From Octopus vulgaris (lineage: Eukaryota): a stretch of DNA of 64,000 nucleotides. Of this stretch, positions 550 through 64,000 are shown piece by piece; within the stretch, counting starts at the first letter, position 1; each line of letters begins with the position of its first letter. Position numbers and translations under genes: made by a program. Under the pieces are notes generated by a model. It worked only from the letters and a program-made list of their open reading frames with translations. It was not told the origin of the DNA and did not search any database. The stretch lies in NCBI GenBank assembly GCA_951406725.2, contig OX597817.1, positions 40,362,001 through 40,426,000 on the forward strand, given 5' to 3'.

Positions 550-2261
550 TGCAGCATGCTTTCAGACTATCTCTCTACCTAACTTTGTTAGTTTTGTCAT
601 TATTTGCCCCAAGTCAACTCTGATTGATTAGAGACTTTTACCATGACCATCCTATCTTCTCTGACTTAATGTATCTAGGATTACATTACTCAATGCGCCC
701 CTAATTATAATTTAAAGACAGTAGGGTGTGATTTGAGAGGGATTTGGCTATTATTTTTAGTAAGTCGCGCGACGACTCTTATCGACCTGCCAGTTCTGTG
801 TTAGTGTCTGAGGACTAAAAGAGAATGATTCAAGGTGGTTAATGGGTTTCCAACGGCCTTGAAATACTGGATGCGAGATTAAACTCACTGTAGTTGTTGG
901 GACCAAAGTGGAGTGTAACGCAGTTGTAGGTTTTTATCCCTCATAATAAAATAAGGAAGAGATGGGTCTCTATCCAGAAACACACCGGACTTCTAAAACA
1001 AGTACGCCAACCAGGCAATGCAGCGTGTTCGCTGTGTTGTATTATGTTTGGGTTACATTGACCTTCCGTATAACAGTCGTCATAACACGCCGCTGTTAGA
1101 CATCACTCTTCGTGTGCTAGAATAAAGTATGTCTAGTACAGTTAATTTGTCGCAAATTAAACCAGTGAAGGATTTGGAGGGCAATTTGTTTGGGTGAAAT
1201 TCTGTTTCAAATTGGGGAGGAAAAAAGTTGTAATCTACCTTGACAGGTCGCCGATTATAACGACGAAGAGATTGAAAAACAAAAATTTGCTACATGAACT
1301 GCACACTGGTCCCTGAAAATGCGTTCTGGGATGTGTTCCAAAACAGGGTGGGTGTGGGGATTGGAAGCGGTCGTGTCAAAACTAGAGGGAACTATTTCGA
1401 AAGAGATCGAATTTTTTTTTCTAAGTCTGGTATTTTTTCCTGGACAGGCGGGCCTTGTATATTCTGTAGGATAGTTTTATTTAATGTCTTGGGTGAAAGG
1501 CTCGCGAAAATAAGGCCGTGGGTTCGATTCCTGGGCCGGGCATCGTGTTGTGTACCAATCTATTCAGCTGACGAGTCCCAGCCAACTGCTCATGTAGCCC
1601 TCCTTTCTTCCGCTGTAGTATAGTTGATGTTCTGTTGGATCAAGTGTGAGAGGGCCGGTAGGGTGTCTGTACTCTGCTCGCGATTACATAGGCTCTTACA
1701 ATAATTAGTGAAAGCCCTGAACAAGCTTTCGTTAATTGTTGTATACACGCCATGCTCGCTTGCGAGTGATTGCTGAGCATGAATTATTATGAGCGTTGAA
1801 TTTTACGAATATATGACCTGAATTAGGAGAAACATTTTAGGTACTTTTTGGTTATCTCACCCCTATTAAAAAATTGTCATTAAAAAATTGGGTCATCTCC
1901 TCACTAAAAATAATTGAGTTTATATGGCTACAAGAGAGATCCTTTTGATTCAATACTTCAACACATTGTTTAACTATTGGCATCCTCAATAGGCATTATG
2001 ATTTGTTATAAAAATATCATCAGATTCAATAAGATGTTCAATTTTTTCAGTTTTCATGTTTATTAATTTTTTAATTTTTTTTTTATTGAGGGTTAAACAA
2101 TTGTTTTTAGTTGAAGGAGATAACCAAAAGTACCGATATTTCTCGTAAAGCGGGTGGAGATAACCCAATTTTTTTAATGGGGATGAGTTAGCCACATTTT
2201 ATACCTGCGGGTCTGTAATATAAGGTTTATATTGATAAAATTTAATAAAAAGCTACTTGTT

Positions 2262-2505
2262 TACATTATTTACATTCGACGGATATTTATCCTCATCTTG
2301 TTTGTTGTTAACACAACGTTTCGGCTGATATACCCTCCAGCCTTCTTCAGGTGTCTTGGGGAAATTTCGAACCTGGGTTCTCATTCCTAAGGTATTTTTC
2401 GATGTTGCTGTTATTATCATTATTATTTTTATTGTTCAGGTCACTGCTTGGAATCGAACTCGGAATCTTGGGGTTAGTAGCCCGCGCTCTTAACCACTAC
2501 GCCAT
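2262..2505 (-). mobile_element. tRNA-headed SINE-like element with a hammerhead-bearing (Penelope-type) 3' tail, copy 1
   Basis: Minus strand reads box A TGGCGTAGTGG, anticodon-like arm GGGCTACTAACCC, box B GAGTTCGATTCC (2439-2505), then an (AAT)n linker, a hammerhead motif (2310-2355) and a tail ending GAATGTAAATAATGTA. A second copy lies at 41363-41702. Confidence 0.75.
2310..2355 (-). ncRNA. Minimal type I hammerhead ribozyme motif
   Basis: Minus strand GACAC-CTGAAGA-A-GGCTG-gagggtatat-CAGCC-GAAAC-GTT-GTGTT. Stem I is GACAC/GTGTT, the CUGANGA and GAAA cores are intact, stem II is 5 bp, stem III is the palindrome ACGT and the NUH site is GUU. Confidence 0.7.
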
Positions 2506-2873
2506 TTGTTATAAAAATATCAGATTCAATAAGATGTTTAATTTTTTTTCAGTTTTGTATGATTTGTTATAAAAATATTATCAGATTCAGTAACATGTTT
2601 CATTATTTCACTTTTGTTTTTTCGTTTTATTGACGGTTAAACATTTCTTAAGATGAGGGAGATAACCAAAAGTACCGATTTTCTCATAAAACATGGAGAT
2701 AACCCAATTTTTTTAATGGGGGTGAGGTGAGATAACCCAAAAGTACCAAAATATTCATAATTTTCAAAATAACGTGTTTTTTATTAATAAATCCTCTTTA
2801 TGCAATTTATTTTTCATTTAAAGTCTTATAAATTAGGGTGGAAGTATTGACTAAAATATAGATATAGGCTTTT

Positions 2874-4090
2874 TGGAGGGGCAAGTCGATGCCTTCGAAT
2901 AGCATCGTGGGATGCTGGACGGAGGGCCCGGTTAAGCTGCTAGGGATCTGGTTTGGTCCAGGTCTCCAGATAGAAAAGAACTGGTCTGAGGTGTCGGGCA
3001 AGGTGGCTCACGCGGTCGGGACTTGGTCCGGACGGTGGCTGTCCTTGAAAGGGAGGGCGGAGGTGCCAATGTGTTTTTAGCATCGGTCATCACCTACCGC
3101 CTGACCGTCGTCCCTTGTCCGGATTCGTGGTTGAGCAAGTTGGAGAGACAGATCTTCCACTTTTTGTGGAAGGGAAGTGCTCCTCTTGTAAGACGTTCTA
3201 TCTGCTGTCAGAAACCGTTAAAGGGTGGCTTGGGGATGCCTTGGCTGATGATGCGCAGAGATGCGCTGAGGTTAAGGCACCTTTGGCTCTACCTGGATGG
3301 TGAACGGGTGTGGTCCCCGCTTGCGAAGCAGATGTTCCCCAGCTTTGTCAGTTTCGGTGGCAGAGAAACCTGGTTTCGTCGCAGACTTAGATCGAGCATG
3401 TGGTATTCGGAGTGCCATAAGGCACTCTGCCACTTCCGCAAGTCGGGCAATGCCGGCGGCTTTGGTACCACCGCAGCTTTTTATAGCAGGTTGGTAGAGG
3501 CCGGAAATGACGATGCCTTAAGAAGGACCTTGGGCCTCGATAGAAATCAGTTGGACAGCCTGTTCCGAAGGACGTTCGGGCCGAAGACATTGGATAACTT
3601 CCAGAAGTCTTTGATCTGGCAATGTTTCAGAGGAGCTTTACCCGTTCGGGATAAACTCACAAGGCATGGTTGGAGTGGACCATCGAACTGCCCAAGATGC
3701 GAGCGGGATCTGGAAACAGTCTCGCACGCTATGGTTCAGTGTCCGAAAGTCTCGGACGTGTGGGTATATGCCGAACACCTGTTGTCGGACGGAAGAAGAG
3801 TACAGCTATCGGCTGAGACAATTATAAAAATTGACTCGCCTAGCTTTTTGACAAGTGAAGGTAAGCATTGCTTTCTCAGTACAGTAGCAGTAGCGAAAGA
3901 GTGTATATGGAAGACCAGAATGAAAGCGGTAACGACAGGCACCGTGATCTCTGGCTCCGCTTTGGTGACCTATTTCAGGTTCCACCTAAAAAGGAAGGTG
4001 GAGTTGGAGAAGAGGTGTCTGTCTGCGTGTGAGTTCGATAAAATATGGAAGCGTGTGGCACGGTTGCTGCGAGTGAGAGGAGCCACGTAA
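2874..4090 (+). pseudogene. Tx1-like ORF2 fragment (end of RT/thumb plus zf-RVT CCHC finger), one frameshift near 3065
   Basis: ORF 2889-3080 (VKLLGIWFG...WSGRWLSLKGRAEV) continues in ORF 3023-4090 (ANVFLASVITYRL...FLWKG...KGGLGMP...CPRC-x6-ETVSH-x4-C). These are typical L1/Tx1 motifs. Confidence 0.85.
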
Positions 4091-5419: not shown

Positions 5420-6398
5420 AATTTCTTCCAACAACTTTCAAATGGTTTTACAAACATTATGCAAGTTGTTAGTGCAGCGTTACTGAACTTTGTTTCTCGG
5501 GCCACAAGCATGTTTGTGTGGATCTGAAATCAGCTTTGCAACTACGCGGTATCAACTTCGATTCGATTGCGCAGTACCTTATGGCAGTGCTCCGCTACCT
5601 TTCTTCACTTGCGATACACTTATATTCTTTTCAAAATTCGGCGGCACACTGAAACTAAAAATACAACTAAAATTATAGGGAAAAAATTATATTCATGTTA
5701 CACTGCGGCACACCGGTTGTGTAGCATTGCCTTAGGGAAGTGTTTTCTACTTGAGAGTAAAATTTGACTGGCGCTAACAACGTAAAACAGTTATCATTTT
5801 CTCATAGTTTCCTCTCTTTTCTTATCAATGATTTGTAAAAAAACGTATTTTTATGTGAGTCATTCGTTGAATTGACTTAAGGCAGGTTGCGTGGTTCATA
5901 AATTCGCTTCGGTCTCATGTGGTTTCGTATTTGGTCCTACCATAGCCTCGAATCTACCTAAGCTTTGTGAGTGAAATTGAGTAGACAGAAACCTATTTGT
6001 ACCTGTTCTTTACTGGTAGACTTAATTTACCGCCTTGTTTAACACCATCACTTAGCCATTGGAAGCTTTCGATCCAAGTTGCCAGTCTGAGGATAACACT
6101 CCCACTTTCTTCTCATCACATTCGGCGGGTCTGAAAATGGTTTAAGGTTATTCCTATTCTCCTCTAATTTAAACCATTAATAAAAGAACAATAAAATAAA
6201 ATAAAAAAACGAAACCCATTAAAATTATCTTCTACTCACTGATATTTTGTGGTGGCTAATGAGATAAGATAACATAGCTCGTACCCCCTGTCCCCAATCA
6301 AATGAAACCTGATCAATACATGGAAAGTTTTGGTAATATGACACAACATAGGACTTCTCAATCTGAATTACTAATTTCCTCAATTTTGCATTAAAGAA

Positions 6399-6444
<46 letters not shown>

Positions 6445-7139
6445 ACTCCTTTCCGTTTTACTCTCTCGTCTAATTCCGCCTCTCTCCCACATACTGATAT
6501 AAGATATTTTATAAACATACACAGGAAAAAAAACGATTCTTTGACAGAAATTTCTACAATTTTTTTCTTGCAGTTTTGATTTGTAATTAAACTCTCAGTC
6601 TGATTAAATAATTATACAGTTTTCTTCAGAAAGCCTCTAGAGAAACCGTTGTAGTTGTTTAACGTTGAATTTTGTAAAATAAATTATGAAGTGAAATTAC
6701 TCTAAATTGTATAGCTAAGCATTTTTTAAAGTTGCACATATTAAATCTTTTACGATTAAACTTTACTACCATATATTCTTGATTTTTTAAAATATTCTCT
6801 TTGTGTGGTGTCTACCATTTGGTAAAGTTCAATATAAAAGATCTGTTAGGCATTAGTGTGTCTGGGCGGTGGTGTAGGGTTTGGTTTCTGAGGCCTGCAG
6901 AAAAATTAACACGTGTAATGAAATTTAAATGGCTTTTAAACTGTTTTCCCTTATCTAACATTGTGGATAAGAATGAACTATACGAATGCAGACTGTAGCT
7001 TATCTTTTCATGAATAAAGAGTGGGGTGGTAAAAATAAAAACAAAACAAACTTCTAATATTTTGCCAGTGCGTGGTATTCGTGAGTAGAGAACAGCTGTC
7101 CTAGCCATCAAAGTTGATGTTTTTCAGTGATTATTTGTA

Positions 7140-7495
7140 TTTCTTTTCATGCTGGGACACCGCTATGAAATATTTTGTCGAACAGATGGACTCCCAGTAC
7201 TTTTTAAAAAAATCTGTATTCCATCGGTCTCTTGCCGAACCGCAGTTATAGAGACATTAACAGACCAACACCGGTTTGTCAAGTGGTGGGCTCAGACACA
7301 CACACTAATATATAAATCGCCATGATAGATCACTAGCCACTACACATTCTTTTTCTCTCCTTGTTTCTTTCTGTGGAAGAGCGTAGGCTCGAAACGTTAA
7401 AGACTTTTTCACTTCCCGAGCGTTATACTAATACATCTGTTTGTTGTCTAAACCACCTGTCTTCGTCTTTTTTTTTTTGTTTTTGTGAATTCTCC

Positions 7496-7533
<38 letters not shown>

Positions 7534-7678
7534 GGCCTCCACAAATTGACTCACAAGGCATTATTCGGCCCGGTGATATAGTAGAAGGCACTTGCACAAG
7601 GTGCCGCGCAGTGGGACTGAACCCAAAACCATGTGGCTACAAAGCGAGTTTCTTAACCATATAGCCATGCCTGCACTT
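7140..7678 (-). mobile_element. SINE family A (tRNA-derived, CORE-like) interrupted by a hammerhead-like element
   Basis: Homologous to the copies at 51347-51736 and 53321-53721 (GGCACCTTG..CAAGTG, CAGTCCCACTGCG, ACCAACACCGGTT). An unrelated block at 7312-7498 sits in its central microsatellite. Confidence 0.6.
7366..7403 (+). ncRNA. Hammerhead-like motif (core variant CUGUGGA) in a Penelope-type terminal repeat (7312-7498)
   Basis: TCTTT-CTGTGGA-A-GAGC-gtag-GCTC-GAAAC-GTT-AAAGA. Stem I is TCTTT/AAAGA, stem II is GAGC/GCTC and stem III is ACGT. Core position 6 is U instead of A. Confidence 0.5.
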
Positions 7679-8341
7679 ATGAATTTTTTTTTTTTTGTGA
7701 ATGGGGTCAGCATATTTGTTGCTTGTGATTACTCGCAGTTTGGCCTCGATGTATTTTGACGTATTTTCTGTACAAATTAAACACCCAGAGAACAGTACGA
7801 GAGCACAACAGCCTGATCACCAAGGCTTTTTTTGAAACTCAGACAACGATTGGGAAAGACACTGCGAAATGGGCTGTTTGCTGTCAGTTGCCAATGTTTT
7901 TCTTCGAGAGAACGGGGGTTGGATAAAGTGCTGCTGAGATAGGTTAAGGATAAATCTCCTTTGTTTCGTTCACTATAAATAATCGTTTTAAGAGGTCTTT
8001 CTATTTTGGGTGGATAGTGAGCAATAGTCTATCTTCACTATACTGAGGTAAACCATCTTGTTAGCCCGAAAAAATACATCGGAAGTGGTTTATAGATAAA
8101 ATTCTGTTAAAATTGGAACAACATTCTAGTCAGCTTATTGTAGGTCATAGATTATGGTCATAGGTGTGTGGATTCTTCGATTTAGGGTGATGTATGTCGA
8201 AAAAAAAAAATCTTCACAAGTTTGGATTCATTCTTGATTTTTCATCGGCATATTAATCATATACACCAAAAACAGGGTTTCGATGTTGAATTATTCAACA
8301 TCCCCTCCAAAATTCTTGGAGCTGAAGACCGTAAGCATTGT

Positions 8342-15991: not shown

Positions 15992-16125
15992 ATTTTAACA
16001 AAGTTTGGGCACATTATGTGGGGGCAGGTGAAACTATCTGCATGGTATATATATATATATATATATATATACCATGCAGATAGTTTCACCTGCCCCCACA
16101 TAATGTGCCCAAACTTTGTTAAAAT
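15992..16125. repeat. Perfect 134-bp palindrome centred on (TA)13
   Basis: 15992-16045 is the exact reverse complement of 16072-16125. Confidence 0.95.
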
Positions 16126-21672: not shown

Positions 21673-22004
21673 ATGAAATCTTACAAAAATGGAGTAAATT
21701 CACACACAAATTCTAATTCTCACCATGAACCAAAATCTGTTTTCACCTGGGATGAATGCTTACCCATACCAAGGCTTTCATTCATTCCAGCAGCTACCAT
21801 TGTCTTCATTTTGGCCACAGCCTGTTTCCTTAACAGCGTTTCAGGCCATTTTGTTTTTGATGACTTTGAAGCCATCTTGAACAATAACGATCTCACACCA
21901 AGTGAACCTATTGGAAATTTATTTTTTCATGATTTTTGGGGCAACAAACTCAATTCCGACTCCAGCCACAAATCATACCGTCCATTTGCAGTTCTCACAT
22001 TCAG
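21673..22004 (+). CDS. TMTC4: N-terminal coding exon of a TMTC-family protein O-mannosyltransferase (TMTC4-like); exon 21645-22004
   Basis: A TM helix is followed by GHFVFDDFEAILNNNDL...LFFHDFWGNKLNSDSSHKSYRPFAVLTFR, the conserved TMTC signature (FVFDD, DFWG, SHKSYRP). The acceptor tttgtttttcag ends at 21644 and the phase-2 donor AG|GTAAAG starts at 22005. The paralog assignment is from recalled similarity and the true start could be upstream. Confidence 0.88.
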
Positions 22005-22022
22005 GTAAAGCAATTTTCTAAT

Positions 22023-32155: not shown

Positions 32156-32367
32156 ATATAATATGTGACAATTATTCGGTAGCCATGATAAAACTCCAGC
32201 TTTCAAATGTTGGGGCGGAAACCTGCACCGGCATCTCTTCAATTATCGGGCCATCAAATAATTTTTTGATGGCCCAATAACTGAAGAGATGCCGGTGCGG
32301 GTTTCTGCCCCAACATCTGAAACTCGGAGTTTTATCATGGCTACCGAATAATTGTCACATATTATAT
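32156..32367. mobile_element. Head-to-head inverted pair of Penelope-type terminal repeats (~210-bp imperfect palindrome)
   Basis: 32156-32258 is the reverse complement of ~32265-32367 with scattered mismatches. Each arm carries a hammerhead-like motif. Confidence 0.65.
32277..32335 (+). ncRNA. Type I hammerhead ribozyme motif
   Basis: ATAA-CTGAAGA-GATG...CATC-T-GAAA-CTCGGAG-TT-TTAT. Stem I is ATAA/TTAT, stem II is GATG/CATC with a long loop and stem III is the near-palindrome ACTC-G-GAGT. Confidence 0.55.
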
Positions 32368-35800: not shown

Positions 35801-36131
35801 TTACATCCACCCCAGTGTTCAACTGGTACTTATTTTATCAACCTTGAAAGAATGAAAACCAAATTTGACCTTGGTGAGATTTGAACTCAGAATGTAAAGA
35901 CAGACAAAATGCCTCTAAGTTTTTTGTCCAATCTGTTAATGGTCCTGCCAGCTTATCACCTTACTACTAATAATAATAATAATAACCTTTTCTTCTATAG
36001 GCACAATGCCTGAGATTTTAGGGGAGGGAGAAAGTTGATCACGTCGCCCCCAGTGCTTAACTGGTACCTGTTTCACTGACCCTGAATGAATGACAGGCAA
36101 AGCCAATCTTAGCAAAATAATAATAGGGGTT

Positions 36132-36284
36132 TTGATGATGTTTATTAACCCCTCAGATCAAAACTGCTGGCCTTGTGCCTTAATCAGAAACATCATCATC
36201 AGAAAGCGGACGCTAAACGATGATGTTTCTGATTAAGGCACAAGGCCAGCAGTTTTGATCTGAGGGGTTAATAAACATCATCAA
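36132..36284. repeat. Perfect 66-bp inverted repeat with a 21-bp spacer
   Basis: 36132-36197 is the reverse complement of 36219-36284. The spacer is ATCAGAAAGCGGACGCTAAAC. Confidence 0.95.
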
Positions 36285-36421
36285 TATCCCTTGGTACTTA
36301 ACTGGTATTTTATTTTATTAAATCTTTTACTTCAGGGAGTTTTGAACTCAGAATGTAAAGTGTTGGAATCAATCCTACCCAAACCACCACACTTTTTTTT
36401 TATCTCTTGAGGTTTGTTTAA

Positions 36422-40992: not shown

Positions 40993-41362
40993 TCGTGGTT
41001 TATAGACAGCTACCCCTCCTCCAATGACTTATTGCTTTGTTTTTATTTATTTACCTCTTTATATTTTTAATCTAGATACCTTTCCTTCCTTACCAGACAA
41101 TAGTCAATATCGGTTCTCATTGTACATAGCATTAATAAACATTCATATAGATTTCAAATTGTTTTTATGTAATATATTTTGTCCTACATGCTTTCCCTAA
41201 TCTGACAAATGTTGAATAGATTCTGTAAAGTCAGATGTTTACAAAGATTAGGCTATGGGCAGAGATCCTTATTACAGACCAAATCATTAATATAATATCT
41301 AAAAAAACAGTTATCTTTGCTTTTGTTTTATGGAATTTATGGAAGTAGAAAACAACAAAGTT

Positions 41363-41702
41363 CTATATTTAAGAGATGAGGAATTATGTACATTATTTAC
41401 ATTCAACGGATATTTTTCCTCGTCTTGTTTGTTGTTAACCACTACGCCATATGCTCATGGGCATATGGTGTAATGGTTAAGAGTGCGGGCTACTAACCCC
41501 AAGTTTCCAAGTTCGATTCCAAGCAATGACCTGAACAATAACGATAATAACAATAATAATAATAATAACATCGAAAAATACCTTAGGAATGAGAACCCGG
41601 GTTCGAAATTTCCCCAAGACACCTGAAGAAGGCTAGAGGGTATATCAGCCAAAACGTGTTAATGACAGATGAGGACAAATATCTGTCGAATGTAAATAAT
41701 GT
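41363..41702 (+). mobile_element. tRNA-headed hammerhead-tail SINE-like element, copy 2, with an inverted 5' extension
   Basis: Head 41461-41532, (AAT)n linker and a degenerate hammerhead at 41618-41660. 41389-41455 is an inverted tail-plus-head fragment. A flanking direct repeat AAAACAAC(A/T)AAGTT lies at 41349 and 41703. Confidence 0.75.
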
Positions 41703-42221
41703 AAAACAACTAAGTTTGAAATGAATTGCCTAAGCGTGAAGTGATTTTAATTTACTGGTCATTTAGAATATCCTTTAGTACCATTTTCATCTTTAGATTG
41801 TGGCTCCCGACCCTGTCATAGTGTTTGAGGGAATGAGTAAATCTTGGCTTCATCAATGAGACATTAAATATAAGATGTCTTAAGTAGCTGGGAATAATAT
41901 GAAATTGCAATCTTCTAGTTTGTTGGGAACATTCTTCCCTTCTGTTTTAATCATTGCAGGAAGCTTCAATTCTCAAATCTGCTAGAAGTAGCAATCAAAT
42001 CTCCCTTATCTTAAAAAAAGGAATGACACCTAGAGAAATGTATTCTTGATATACAAAAAAAGGTTGATATAATAATGACTGGAAGACTGTTGATCATAAG
42101 TCTATTGGAAAAGCAGGGATGTATGAGCTAAACAGCAGTAACTTTAATCATATACAAAATGCCTTACAGGGAGTTTTGTTATACTCATCTCCATTTCAAC
42201 AGTTTCTTCATTCACTGTTAA

Positions 42222-62734: not shown

Positions 62735-64000
62735 CAGGGTGTGGTGAATATATTGTCATCTAAATTACGCGAAAATGAAAATAACATTGACATCTCATTT
62801 TAACATATATTTACCAAAATAAAATTGCATTAAAATATCTTGAAATACTAAAGAATAAATTTATTGAATAAAATTGCCATTGGCTTCAACCATGACCTCT
62901 AGGCAACTTCAGAATCTCCTGTGACTTTTTTGGACAGTCTCCTTGTTTAAGTTGGTGAATGCTGCTATAATCCTTGCTTTCAGTTTATCTTTGGTGTTAC
63001 AAAGAGTTTTGTTGGTTTCCTGCTCAACTGCACCCCACACATAATAACCAAGGGGTTGCAGTGTGAGGAGTTAGGTGGCCAGATGTTAGTGGTGATGTGG
63101 TCACAGAAATTATCCGATAGCCATGACTGGGTTTTCCTGCTTCTGTGGCATGGTGCAGAGTCCTGTTGTCATACGTAGGGTCTTCCAGCAGCACTACTTC
63201 CTCCAGGCACTTGATATAGGCCTCCATGTTGAGTTTGAGGCCATGTGGAAAAATGAATGGAGGCATAACATCACCATCACTAGTCATCACTCCAAACACC
63301 ATGATGTTGACTGGATGTTTGATTTTTATCACTCTCAGTACATGTTTTGTGTACACAGCAAGCCAACGGTTGTTTTGTGTGTTCACCATCTGATCCTGGC
63401 AGAAATTTTTCTTATCTGAGAAAAGCCAAAGCATGTTTGGTTGGAAGGGATGTTTGAATTCGTTCAAAAGCTTCATAGCACGGCCTTTCCTCTTGTTCTT
63501 GATGGCTTGGAATAAAAGTTGGCCATTTTTCATCTTGTATCAGTAATACCGAATGTCTTCATGCACTACCTGCCTAATAACAAACTCAGACACTCTCGTG
63601 TCCCTGGCAATGGACCTGATTGACTTGGAGGGATTGTTGTTAATCATGGCCTGGATTTTATCAACGAATTCAGAACTGTCCGAGTGAGTTTTCCAAGCTG
63701 CTGTATCTTTGTAATCACCATTATTCTTATCCATCTCTTTCTGAATCCTCTACACTGTCTTCAGATTGACACCCAAACCCTCTAAAATGTTCGTATTGGA
63801 GCTTCCAGCATGAATGCCAAGCAGTACAGCATGTCGTTTCAAAATTTCTGGCTGAGTGAATTGTGTCATCGTGCTGTTTTTCACACAGACTGTGCCCAAC
63901 TAACCCTACTATACTGTGTAGTTAACAAAATCAAAAACTAACAATGTGCATGTGCAAAATTAAAAATATAAAATGGCAACAATTTACCCATCACACCCTG
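62735..64000 (-). mobile_element. Full-length decayed Tc1/mariner superfamily transposon, DD37D (maT) type
   Basis: TA followed by CAGGGTGTG at 62733-62743, and the matching CACACCCTG ending at 64000. Transposase remnants lie inside. Confidence 0.85.
62861..63869 (-). pseudogene. DD37D transposase pseudogene with stops and frameshifts
   Basis: Motifs SIRSIARD (HTH), WLFSDKKNF, KHP..IMVFG and QQDSAPCH...WPPNSSHCNPL. There are 37 residues between the second D and the mutated third catalytic position. Confidence 0.85.

Follow-up and report, generated by a model that had tools for sequence, protein, structure and literature searches.

SINEs are usually treated as separate Pol III parasites of LINEs. 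In octopuses, the tRNA-derived SINEs OK, OR1, and OR2 were reportedly described by Ohshima and Okada in 1994; OR1 and OR2 have an Arg origin. OR2 is a CORE SINE (PMC4758252). Within terminal repeats, Pol III promoters are described in PMC10886601 only for non-autonomous LTR elements; for one such group, TRIMp3, the author expects that the autonomous partners are transcribed by Pol II and do not have the LTR in common with them.

Penelope-like elements (PLEs) leave a characteristic insertion structure, with inverted 5' partial copies and a one-sided tail of 30–40 nt as its hallmarks (PMC8557442). In the Poseidon element of Anolis carolinensis, the tail is the interval between two internal RT start sites (PMC11167929). 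PLE hammerheads are marked by an extra base between positions 9 and 10.1, a G10.1-C11.1 pair, and a palindromic stem III (PMC4209133). The one PLE promoter that has been mapped, that of D. virilis Penelope, is LINE-like, TATA-less, and internal, with a downstream promoter element (PMC2377424).

Here we analyse a 64,000-nt stretch of Octopus vulgaris DNA (contig OX597817.1), referred to as the window. A first-pass annotation had read positions 2262..2505 as a SINE in which a tRNA-like Pol III head is fused to a Penelope-type hammerhead tail. The parts it named, a box A/B head, an AAT linker, and a minimal hammerhead, are all present on the minus strand, as judged by motif fits and a hammerhead descriptor. 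The supposed SINE is the pseudo-LTR (pLTR) of a pLTR-ORF-pLTR Penelope element, head included.

The unit and its hammerhead in the window

The features of copy 1 are listed below; the box A and box B consensus sequences used for the motif fits are those written in PMC8969392.

2260..2508, minus strand: copy 1, a solo pLTR unit of a Penelope/Poseidon-type element, with the short 3' end (without the 31-nt tail), without inversion, and without a clear target-site duplication (TSD)
2435..2508, minus strand: tRNA-like head of copy 1, from comparison with genomic tRNA genes
2494..2504, minus strand: candidate Pol III box A, fitting TGGCNNAGTGG at 11/11 positions
2450..2460, minus strand: candidate Pol III box B, fitting GGTTCGANNCC at 10/11 positions, after a 33-nt spacer from box A
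2405..2434, minus strand: (AAT/AAC)n linker, AAT-rich, highly variable in length from copy to copy and often hit by other repeats
2256..2384, minus strand: first 43 codons of the Penelope ORF (ATG at 2384-2382); in ORF-linked copies the frame continues into the RT/GIY-YIG protein
2310..2355, minus strand: minimal type I hammerhead, with core at 2350-2344 and 2322-2315 and stem II at 2342-2338/2327-2323, overlapping the ORF start

Compared with 30 tRNA genes of the same genome, covering six amino-acid types, the head is nearest to tRNA-Arg (TCT, TCG). ARAGORN, run on the window, reports no tRNA at copy 1, and Rfam reports neither a hammerhead nor a tRNA there, nor either of them among the window matches listed. 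The 3' end of the family lies about 31 nt past the end of copy 1. The copy is surrounded by partial tandem repeats of another AT-rich element carrying a GGAGATAACC motif (1996-2180 and 2506-2750).

The annotation had also placed a second copy of the same architecture at 41363-41702. The layout is indeed shared, and the forward unit is 88% identical to copy 1, but its hammerhead is broken by a G12>A change at 41651 and a 3-nt deletion at the cut site, and the range takes in an inverted partial copy (41360-41453) that had gone undescribed. The insertion is made up as follows.

41349..41362, plus strand: left TSD of copy 2, matching the right one at 13/14 letters
41360..41453, minus strand: inverted partial unit, internally deleted, bearing the long 3' end (the tail) and joined to the head start by a GTTAAC microhomology
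41459..41705, plus strand: forward unit, with the short 3' end and a broken hammerhead
41703..41716, plus strand: right TSD; the 14-bp duplication encloses the whole insertion

Elsewhere in the window there is a 366-aa open frame at 2990-4090 (plus strand), which resembles the C-terminal part of an L1/Tx1-type LINE ORF2, and there are open frames at 21750-22008 (plus strand) and 63024-63539 (minus strand), which we take to resemble a TMTC-family exon and a fragment of a Tc1/mariner transposase, respectively. Long near-perfect inverted repeats at 36127-36289 and 16014-16103 are MITE-like or microsatellite-centred.

The hammerhead of copy 1 consists of stem I (GACAC/GTGTT), CUGAAGA, one extra A, a 5-bp stem II, GAAA, a palindromic ACGU, and a GUU site, with the predicted cut between 2315 and 2314. 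Across the 64-kb window, the descriptor picks out no other site, and it picks out none at all in 30/30 shuffled windows. We identified the hammerhead by the descriptor and by its fit to published minimal-HHR features, not by an Rfam model; the core, the extra nucleotide between 9 and 10.1, G10.1-C11.1, and the palindromic 15.2-16.2 are all found in copy 1, bearing out its earlier description as a PLE-type hammerhead. Across 81 copies, the core is intact in 57, and the core together with all pairs in 28. Divergence of the hammerhead among copies is neutral (3.9% versus 3.4% non-CpG), and N7 is its only site of subfamily-level variation. In an older family, family B, core and stem II are identical and loop II is different, and the core recurs in other PLE families in combination with different stems; in both comparisons the overlap with coding sequence confounds any reading of selection. 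Truncation points fall at positions 88-93 in 4/26 cases, mostly explained by microhomology with the head, and we dropped truncation at the hammerhead cut as evidence of cleavage.

The palindromic stem III permits a predicted dimer fold. The predicted cut falls within the ORF start, with the head on one side of it and the RT start sites on the other, and the copies run through it unbroken. Mutating the hammerhead of Anolis Poseidon does not abolish insertion in vitro (PMC11167929). Because of the position of the cut and the behaviour of these mutants, self-cleavage is probably not needed for making copies, and the hammerhead would simply be inherited from the pLTR.

A pLTR shared with an autonomous Penelope element

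A profile search of all the DNA we fetched found a PLE ORF beside one copy of the unit. We selected 30 loci by the 3' end of this ORF. In 25 of them a leader of ~30 nt and then the tRNA-like head come after the stop codon, and in 23 the tail is present as well; the five misses are copies of one interrupted, duplicated insertion. At the other end, 9 of 30 loci selected on the 5' part of the ORF have an upstream unit that runs in frame into it. The ORF begins with the ATG at window position 2384, and its first ~55 codons are supplied by the hammerhead and tail. In two loci (L388 and L412) the unit stands on both sides of the ORF, which measures 2,413 nt from ATG to stop in L388. The order of the element is ORF stop, ~30-nt leader, tRNA-like head, AAT linker, ATG, hammerhead, tail, and the next ORF in frame, with a pLTR-ORF-pLTR length of about 2.55 kb per unit. 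The autonomous Penelope sharing the tail, for which a search had been suggested, is this element, and the tail is the start of its ORF.

The ORF translations show the RT motif YVDD and a GIY-YIG-type YSIPCSCG..Y.GET. Three broken pieces of the ORF gave no significant Pfam match; homologs of the ORF match PF00078 and PF26215, and two of them also PF01541. A distant homolog, P0006, is 52–53% identical in the C-terminal part and has a similar N-terminus that is likewise hammerhead-encoded (E=4e-5 for the pair). In contrast to a Neptune-like ORF, the translations have no Zn-finger linker between RT and EN, the architecture that separates such elements from Neptune/Nematis (PMC8557442). In a tree the ORF groups with P0002, P0006, and P0008, apart from the Neptune-like rows; the tree contains no named Poseidon reference, and we infer the Penelope/Poseidon clade name from the architecture. 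By every structural feature tested, the family belongs to the PLEs. Identity among its long copies is 89%, and across 60 loci no open frame exceeds 465 aa, with no intact ORF seen in these loci; the family therefore looks old.

Solo and ORF-linked units share their alleles at like frequencies in sets that were not selected on those alleles. Some alleles had appeared to be specific to solo units; they vanished in the unselected sets, revealing a bias of the query. These allele frequencies give no indication that solo copies founded subfamilies. What the family shares with its autonomous partner is the whole unit, whereas a SINE of separate lineage would share only the 3' tail. The earlier idea of a SINE fused from a tRNA head and a Penelope tail, independent of its driver, does not survive these results: the whole unit is part of the autonomous element, and no solo-specific alleles were found.

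From 4 insertions in 40 evenly placed 10-kb stretches, we estimate ~28,000 insertions of the family (95% interval 7,600–72,000). With many thousands of insertions genome-wide, this is a repeat family and not a chance nesting, as had been proposed. The genome-wide linkage of head and tail, set beforehand as a test, holds at 26 of 30 loci selected on the head; in the remaining four, the linker is followed by different sequence. Other repeats with AAT runs at their own ends, apparently the 3' ends of LINEs, break up the (AAT)n linker again and again (L048, L058, L117, L118, L129, L135, and L217).

An inverted partial copy abuts the 5' end in 52 of 86 units, counted after removal of five duplicate loci. 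The 3' ends fall into two classes ~31 nt apart, both internal to the start of the Penelope ORF; there is no 3' poly(A) or simple-repeat end of the kind that goes with reliance on a LINE. The long end, or tail, is present on exactly one side in 24/30 inverted pairs that were not selected on it (Fisher p=0.0016). A TSD score of at least 9 was obtained for 30/67 units with defined outer ends versus 3/670 permuted controls, and the TSDs measure ~10–14 bp. Because the 5' inversions and one-sided tail that are hallmarks of PLE insertion are present, the driver is a PLE and not a LINE; on mobilisation by Penelope machinery, the first pass was right. Units of this family, which we call family A, are solo or head-to-head, not the head-to-tail tandems of non-LTR retrozymes.

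Two older sister families have the same hammerhead core and a homologous tail: family B (L221, L228, L241-L254, and L258) and family C (L255-L257, L259, and L417-L434), the latter with a tRNA-like head as well. In family C, ~45 nt of the ORF start is fused with the end of the ORF; the resulting unit is short and non-autonomous and is sometimes partially tandem with two hammerheads; it is a retrozyme- or Sm-alpha-like derivative. Neptune-like queries found no PLE RT similarity in 23 loci of families B and C. A second box-B-like word (GTTCGA/GTTCAA) lies 15–25 nt upstream of the hammerhead core, at 2366-2373 (minus strand) in the window, in family B, and in 50/66 loci of a Poseidon-type family from another animal (L436-L513); it may be a promoter element or an RNA hairpin.

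Neptune-like PLEs, which we reached via GIY-YIG, were rejected as partners of the unit: they have other hammerheads and tails, those tails that were read through end in (TA)n, and the family A tail stands behind 0/70 of their ORF loci. Three pattern searches with negative constraints, aimed at a partner that has just a portion of the tail in common, gave no such cluster. Several other observations were made along the way. One young Neptune-like family has many intact 781-aa RT/GIY-YIG ORFs and a separate upstream ORF of ~480 aa (L091-L094; G000 C16, C17, and C5), with tandem pLTRs, a U3-A8 variant of the hammerhead core, and a (TA)n 3' end. A remnant of another PLE-type hammerhead and tail with a (TA)n end lies in the window at 32281-32335 (plus strand) and resembles that behind the Neptune-like ORF in L309. 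A long open frame at L209:8400-9900 (plus strand) encodes a divergent RT that we label, by inference, Naiad-like. A protein search with the 54-aa peptide of the unit gave one match, P0001, a chimeric gene model labelled Octopus sinensis, in which the pLTR peptide at the start is fused to a cysteine-rich receptor-like protein, presumably TNF-receptor-like; this fusion may be an exonisation or a mis-annotation.

Starts of copies and a candidate Pol III promoter

Exact 20-mer counts fall from 11,250 in the tail to 5,148 in the head and 865 in the leader at the stop codon, and within the ORF they are 800 at -111 nt, 550 at -366 nt, and 92 at -1,484 nt. There is thus a six-fold drop within ~60 nt at the 5' edge of the head and then a smooth decay through the ORF. 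The half-length of that decay is 460–560 nt, which amounts to a loss of about one tenth over the ~60 nt in which five sixths of the copies vanish. Head and leader words are equally preserved in ORF-linked copies (8/30 and 7/30), so the step is real; and because of this step, we conclude that most copies start at the tRNA cassette. Of 66 heads, 45 end 8–14 nt upstream of box A, and the beginning lies at the same place in L398 and L412, the two ORF-bearing copies in which the upstream pLTR extends to a plain head start. The step at the head is what a transcription start would give.

The cassette has the layout of a SINE promoter: a head derived from a tRNA stands at the 5' end, and its boxes A and B have a spacing of 30–35 nt. 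Both boxes are kept between family A and the older family C, and the spacer has diverged. Strict A..B pairs follow the ORF in 5/30 decayed ORF-linked copies, versus 0/66 in the Poseidon-type family of another animal. We also looked at T-runs in 11 long ORF copies: no TTTT site is common to more than three of them and there is no T5, although the same copies have 27 AAAA sites shared by seven or more, and a Neptune-like ORF of like composition has nine T4 and three T5 runs. The expected number of T4 runs is 2.6–4.1 per 2.1 kb, giving P(0) of about 0.02–0.07 under three nulls, and 0.09 when the expectation is scaled to the Poseidon-type family of another animal. The observed-to-expected ratio is 0.13–0.25 here versus 0.57 in that family, which is mildly depleted in its own right; the latter figure comes from 80 partly redundant loci. 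The missing ancestral TTTT is suggestive as a sign of Pol III, in what is a single lineage.

Because of the SINE-type box spacing, the boxes kept in family C, and the lack of an ancestral TTTT, we favour Pol III: the likeliest account is a Pol III promoter within the pLTR, which would yield a SINE-like RNA and possibly also a full-length RNA. In RNA-seq of a related species (three runs, one study), the unit is present in 5,762–7,908 reads of 11.5–12.9 million. These reads show no pile-up of RNA ends; they are unstranded and fragmented, such that Pol III RNA and passive co-transcription are inseparable in them. Several A>G differences over window positions 2255-2510 rise to 10–25% of RNA reads (runs X21-X23), but the contigs of run X1 show almost none of them; A-to-I editing of inverted-repeat insertions is a possible source.

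The reading that best accounts for the whole, and one that we consider probable, is a Penelope pLTR with a Pol III promoter cassette, internal RT starts, and an inherited hammerhead. In any 3' pLTR or solo copy, transcription by Pol III would begin 8–14 nt upstream of box A and continue to the next genomic T-run. The Penelope protein would bind the ORF-start region, and reverse transcription would initiate internally at two sites ~31 nt apart, as it does in vitro in Anolis Poseidon (PMC11167929). With internal initiation, neither a defined RNA 3' end nor poly(A) would be required. Priming on both strands of a staggered cut of ~10–14 nt could then give inverted pairs that carry the tail on a single side and meet at the palindrome immediately 5' of the head. 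The 2.5-kb coding RNA may likewise come from this promoter when it stands in an upstream pLTR. Taken to its end, this would be an autonomous coding retrotransposon transcribed by Pol III, in which one pLTR promoter gives both the short SINE-like RNA and a 2.5-kb coding RNA, the ORF is purged of T-run terminators, and translation proceeds without a Pol II cap; this extension, argued from sequence, we put forward tentatively, as more probably wrong than right.

The main competitor, which we think somewhat unlikely, keeps the same anatomy but holds that the tRNA cassette is a passive leftover from an earlier insertion of a SINE or tRNA, and that copies start at the head owing to a Pol II start site there or to 5' truncation and fold-back of long RNAs at a palindrome. 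Such a palindrome exists: 12 nt long, it lies just 5' of the head, at the step in copy number, and is the hinge of many inversions. The likeness of alleles between solo and ORF-linked units fits a passive cassette too, as do the heavy 5' truncation of PLEs (PMC8557442) and the LINE-like internal promoter of the D. virilis Penelope pLTR (PMC2377424). A relic would leave unexplained, however, that boxes A and B keep SINE spacing between families A and C while the spacer changed, that 5' ends cluster 8–14 nt before box A, that no ancestral T4 occurs across head, tail, and ORF, and that the Poseidon-type family of the other animal has no A..B pair after its ORF.

Two further models invoke self-cleavage. 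For family A, an independent SINE lineage, formed by fusion of a tRNA head to a Penelope tail, moved in trans, and using self-cleavage in its cycle, is largely refuted, and we give it little credence. Solo units do outnumber ORF-linked ones by ~5:1, and family C shows that an older ORF-deleted, non-autonomous derivative exists; yet the head lies within the autonomous element in 25/30 ORF-end loci and no solo-specific subfamily was found, and against a role for cleavage stand the copies intact across the predicted cut, the mere 4/26 truncation points near it, and the insertion in vitro of the Anolis hammerhead mutants. The least probable of the readings considered, in our view a long shot, is a retrozyme-type cycle, where tandem units would be cut by dimeric hammerheads into monomers, circularised, and reverse-transcribed. 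The palindromic stem III with its predicted dimer fold, the partial tandem units with two hammerheads in family C (L418), and the fact that PLE-derived retrozymes have already been described all speak for it, but insertions of family A occur singly or as head-to-head inverted pairs, their starts lie at the head rather than at the cut site, and no circular-type RNA joint stood out among the best 15 of 82 joints. A Penelope pLTR with its own Pol III promoter cassette therefore remains our preferred reading.

Comparison with described elements

A promoter-like cassette in the pLTR of an autonomous element means that one family yields both coding copies and thousands of SINE-like copies; automated repeat libraries would divide it between a "SINE" entry and a "Penelope" entry. 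The unit would work like a SINE if it is transcribed by Pol III, though it is not one in the sense of a separate lineage. And if the coding element itself is transcribed by Pol III, the LINE-like driver and the SINE would be united in one locus, and SINE-like families could be born from the terminal repeat of their own driver. The family allows a direct test of whether Pol III can produce the mRNA of a retrotransposon. Should the cassette be passive, what is left is a useful re-annotation of an abundant repeat. With its two anti-correlated 3' end classes and its TSDs, the family is also a large natural data set on how PLEs make inverted ends and one-sided tails. Full-text searches of freely accessible literature listed no paper on a PLE whose pLTR carries a tRNA-like cassette, nor one on this octopus family, and the available part of a recent octopus repeat annotation does not describe the structure of family A.

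The known octopus SINEs OK, OR1, and OR2 resemble the unit in having a tRNA-derived head; OR2 is a CORE SINE, whereas the middle of the unit is (AAT)n and Penelope sequence. The TRIMp3 elements (Cassandra, Helenus, and Ajax; PMC10886601) also have a small-RNA-derived Pol III promoter inside a retrotransposon terminal repeat. They are non-autonomous LTR elements with PBS/PPT and TSDs of 4–5 bp, whereas the octopus cassette lies in the coding PLE itself and its TSDs measure ~10–14 bp.

Among hammerhead-bearing repeats, Sm-alpha and Sj-alpha of Schistosoma (reviewed in PMC6765202) are likewise short, with a Pol III-type promoter followed by a hammerhead. They are non-coding, often tandem, and cleaved from multimers, and the available text of that review describes no autonomous element sharing the unit; the octopus units, in contrast, stand alone or inverted, begin with the head, and form the pLTR of a coding element. 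The non-LTR retrozymes of animals (PMC7229834; bioRxiv 10.64898/2026.07.22.740005) are, like the solo units, non-coding and derived from PLE pLTRs with a type I hammerhead, but they comprise tandem hammerhead units and circular RNA, whereas family A is non-tandem with a tRNA-like head; family C is nearer to them.

The element most like ours is Poseidon of Anolis carolinensis (PAc; PMC11167929). It shares the pLTR-ORF-pLTR layout, a hammerhead that overlaps the start of the ORF, two RT start sites with an optional tail of 30–40 nt between them, inverted 5' partial copies, and a GIY-YIG at the C-terminus without the Zn-finger linker of Neptune. The accessible portion of that paper mentions no tRNA-derived cassette. 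The octopus pLTR, in contrast, has a tRNA-derived box A/B cassette, about five sixths of the head-bearing copies start there, and the ORF has no ancestral T4.
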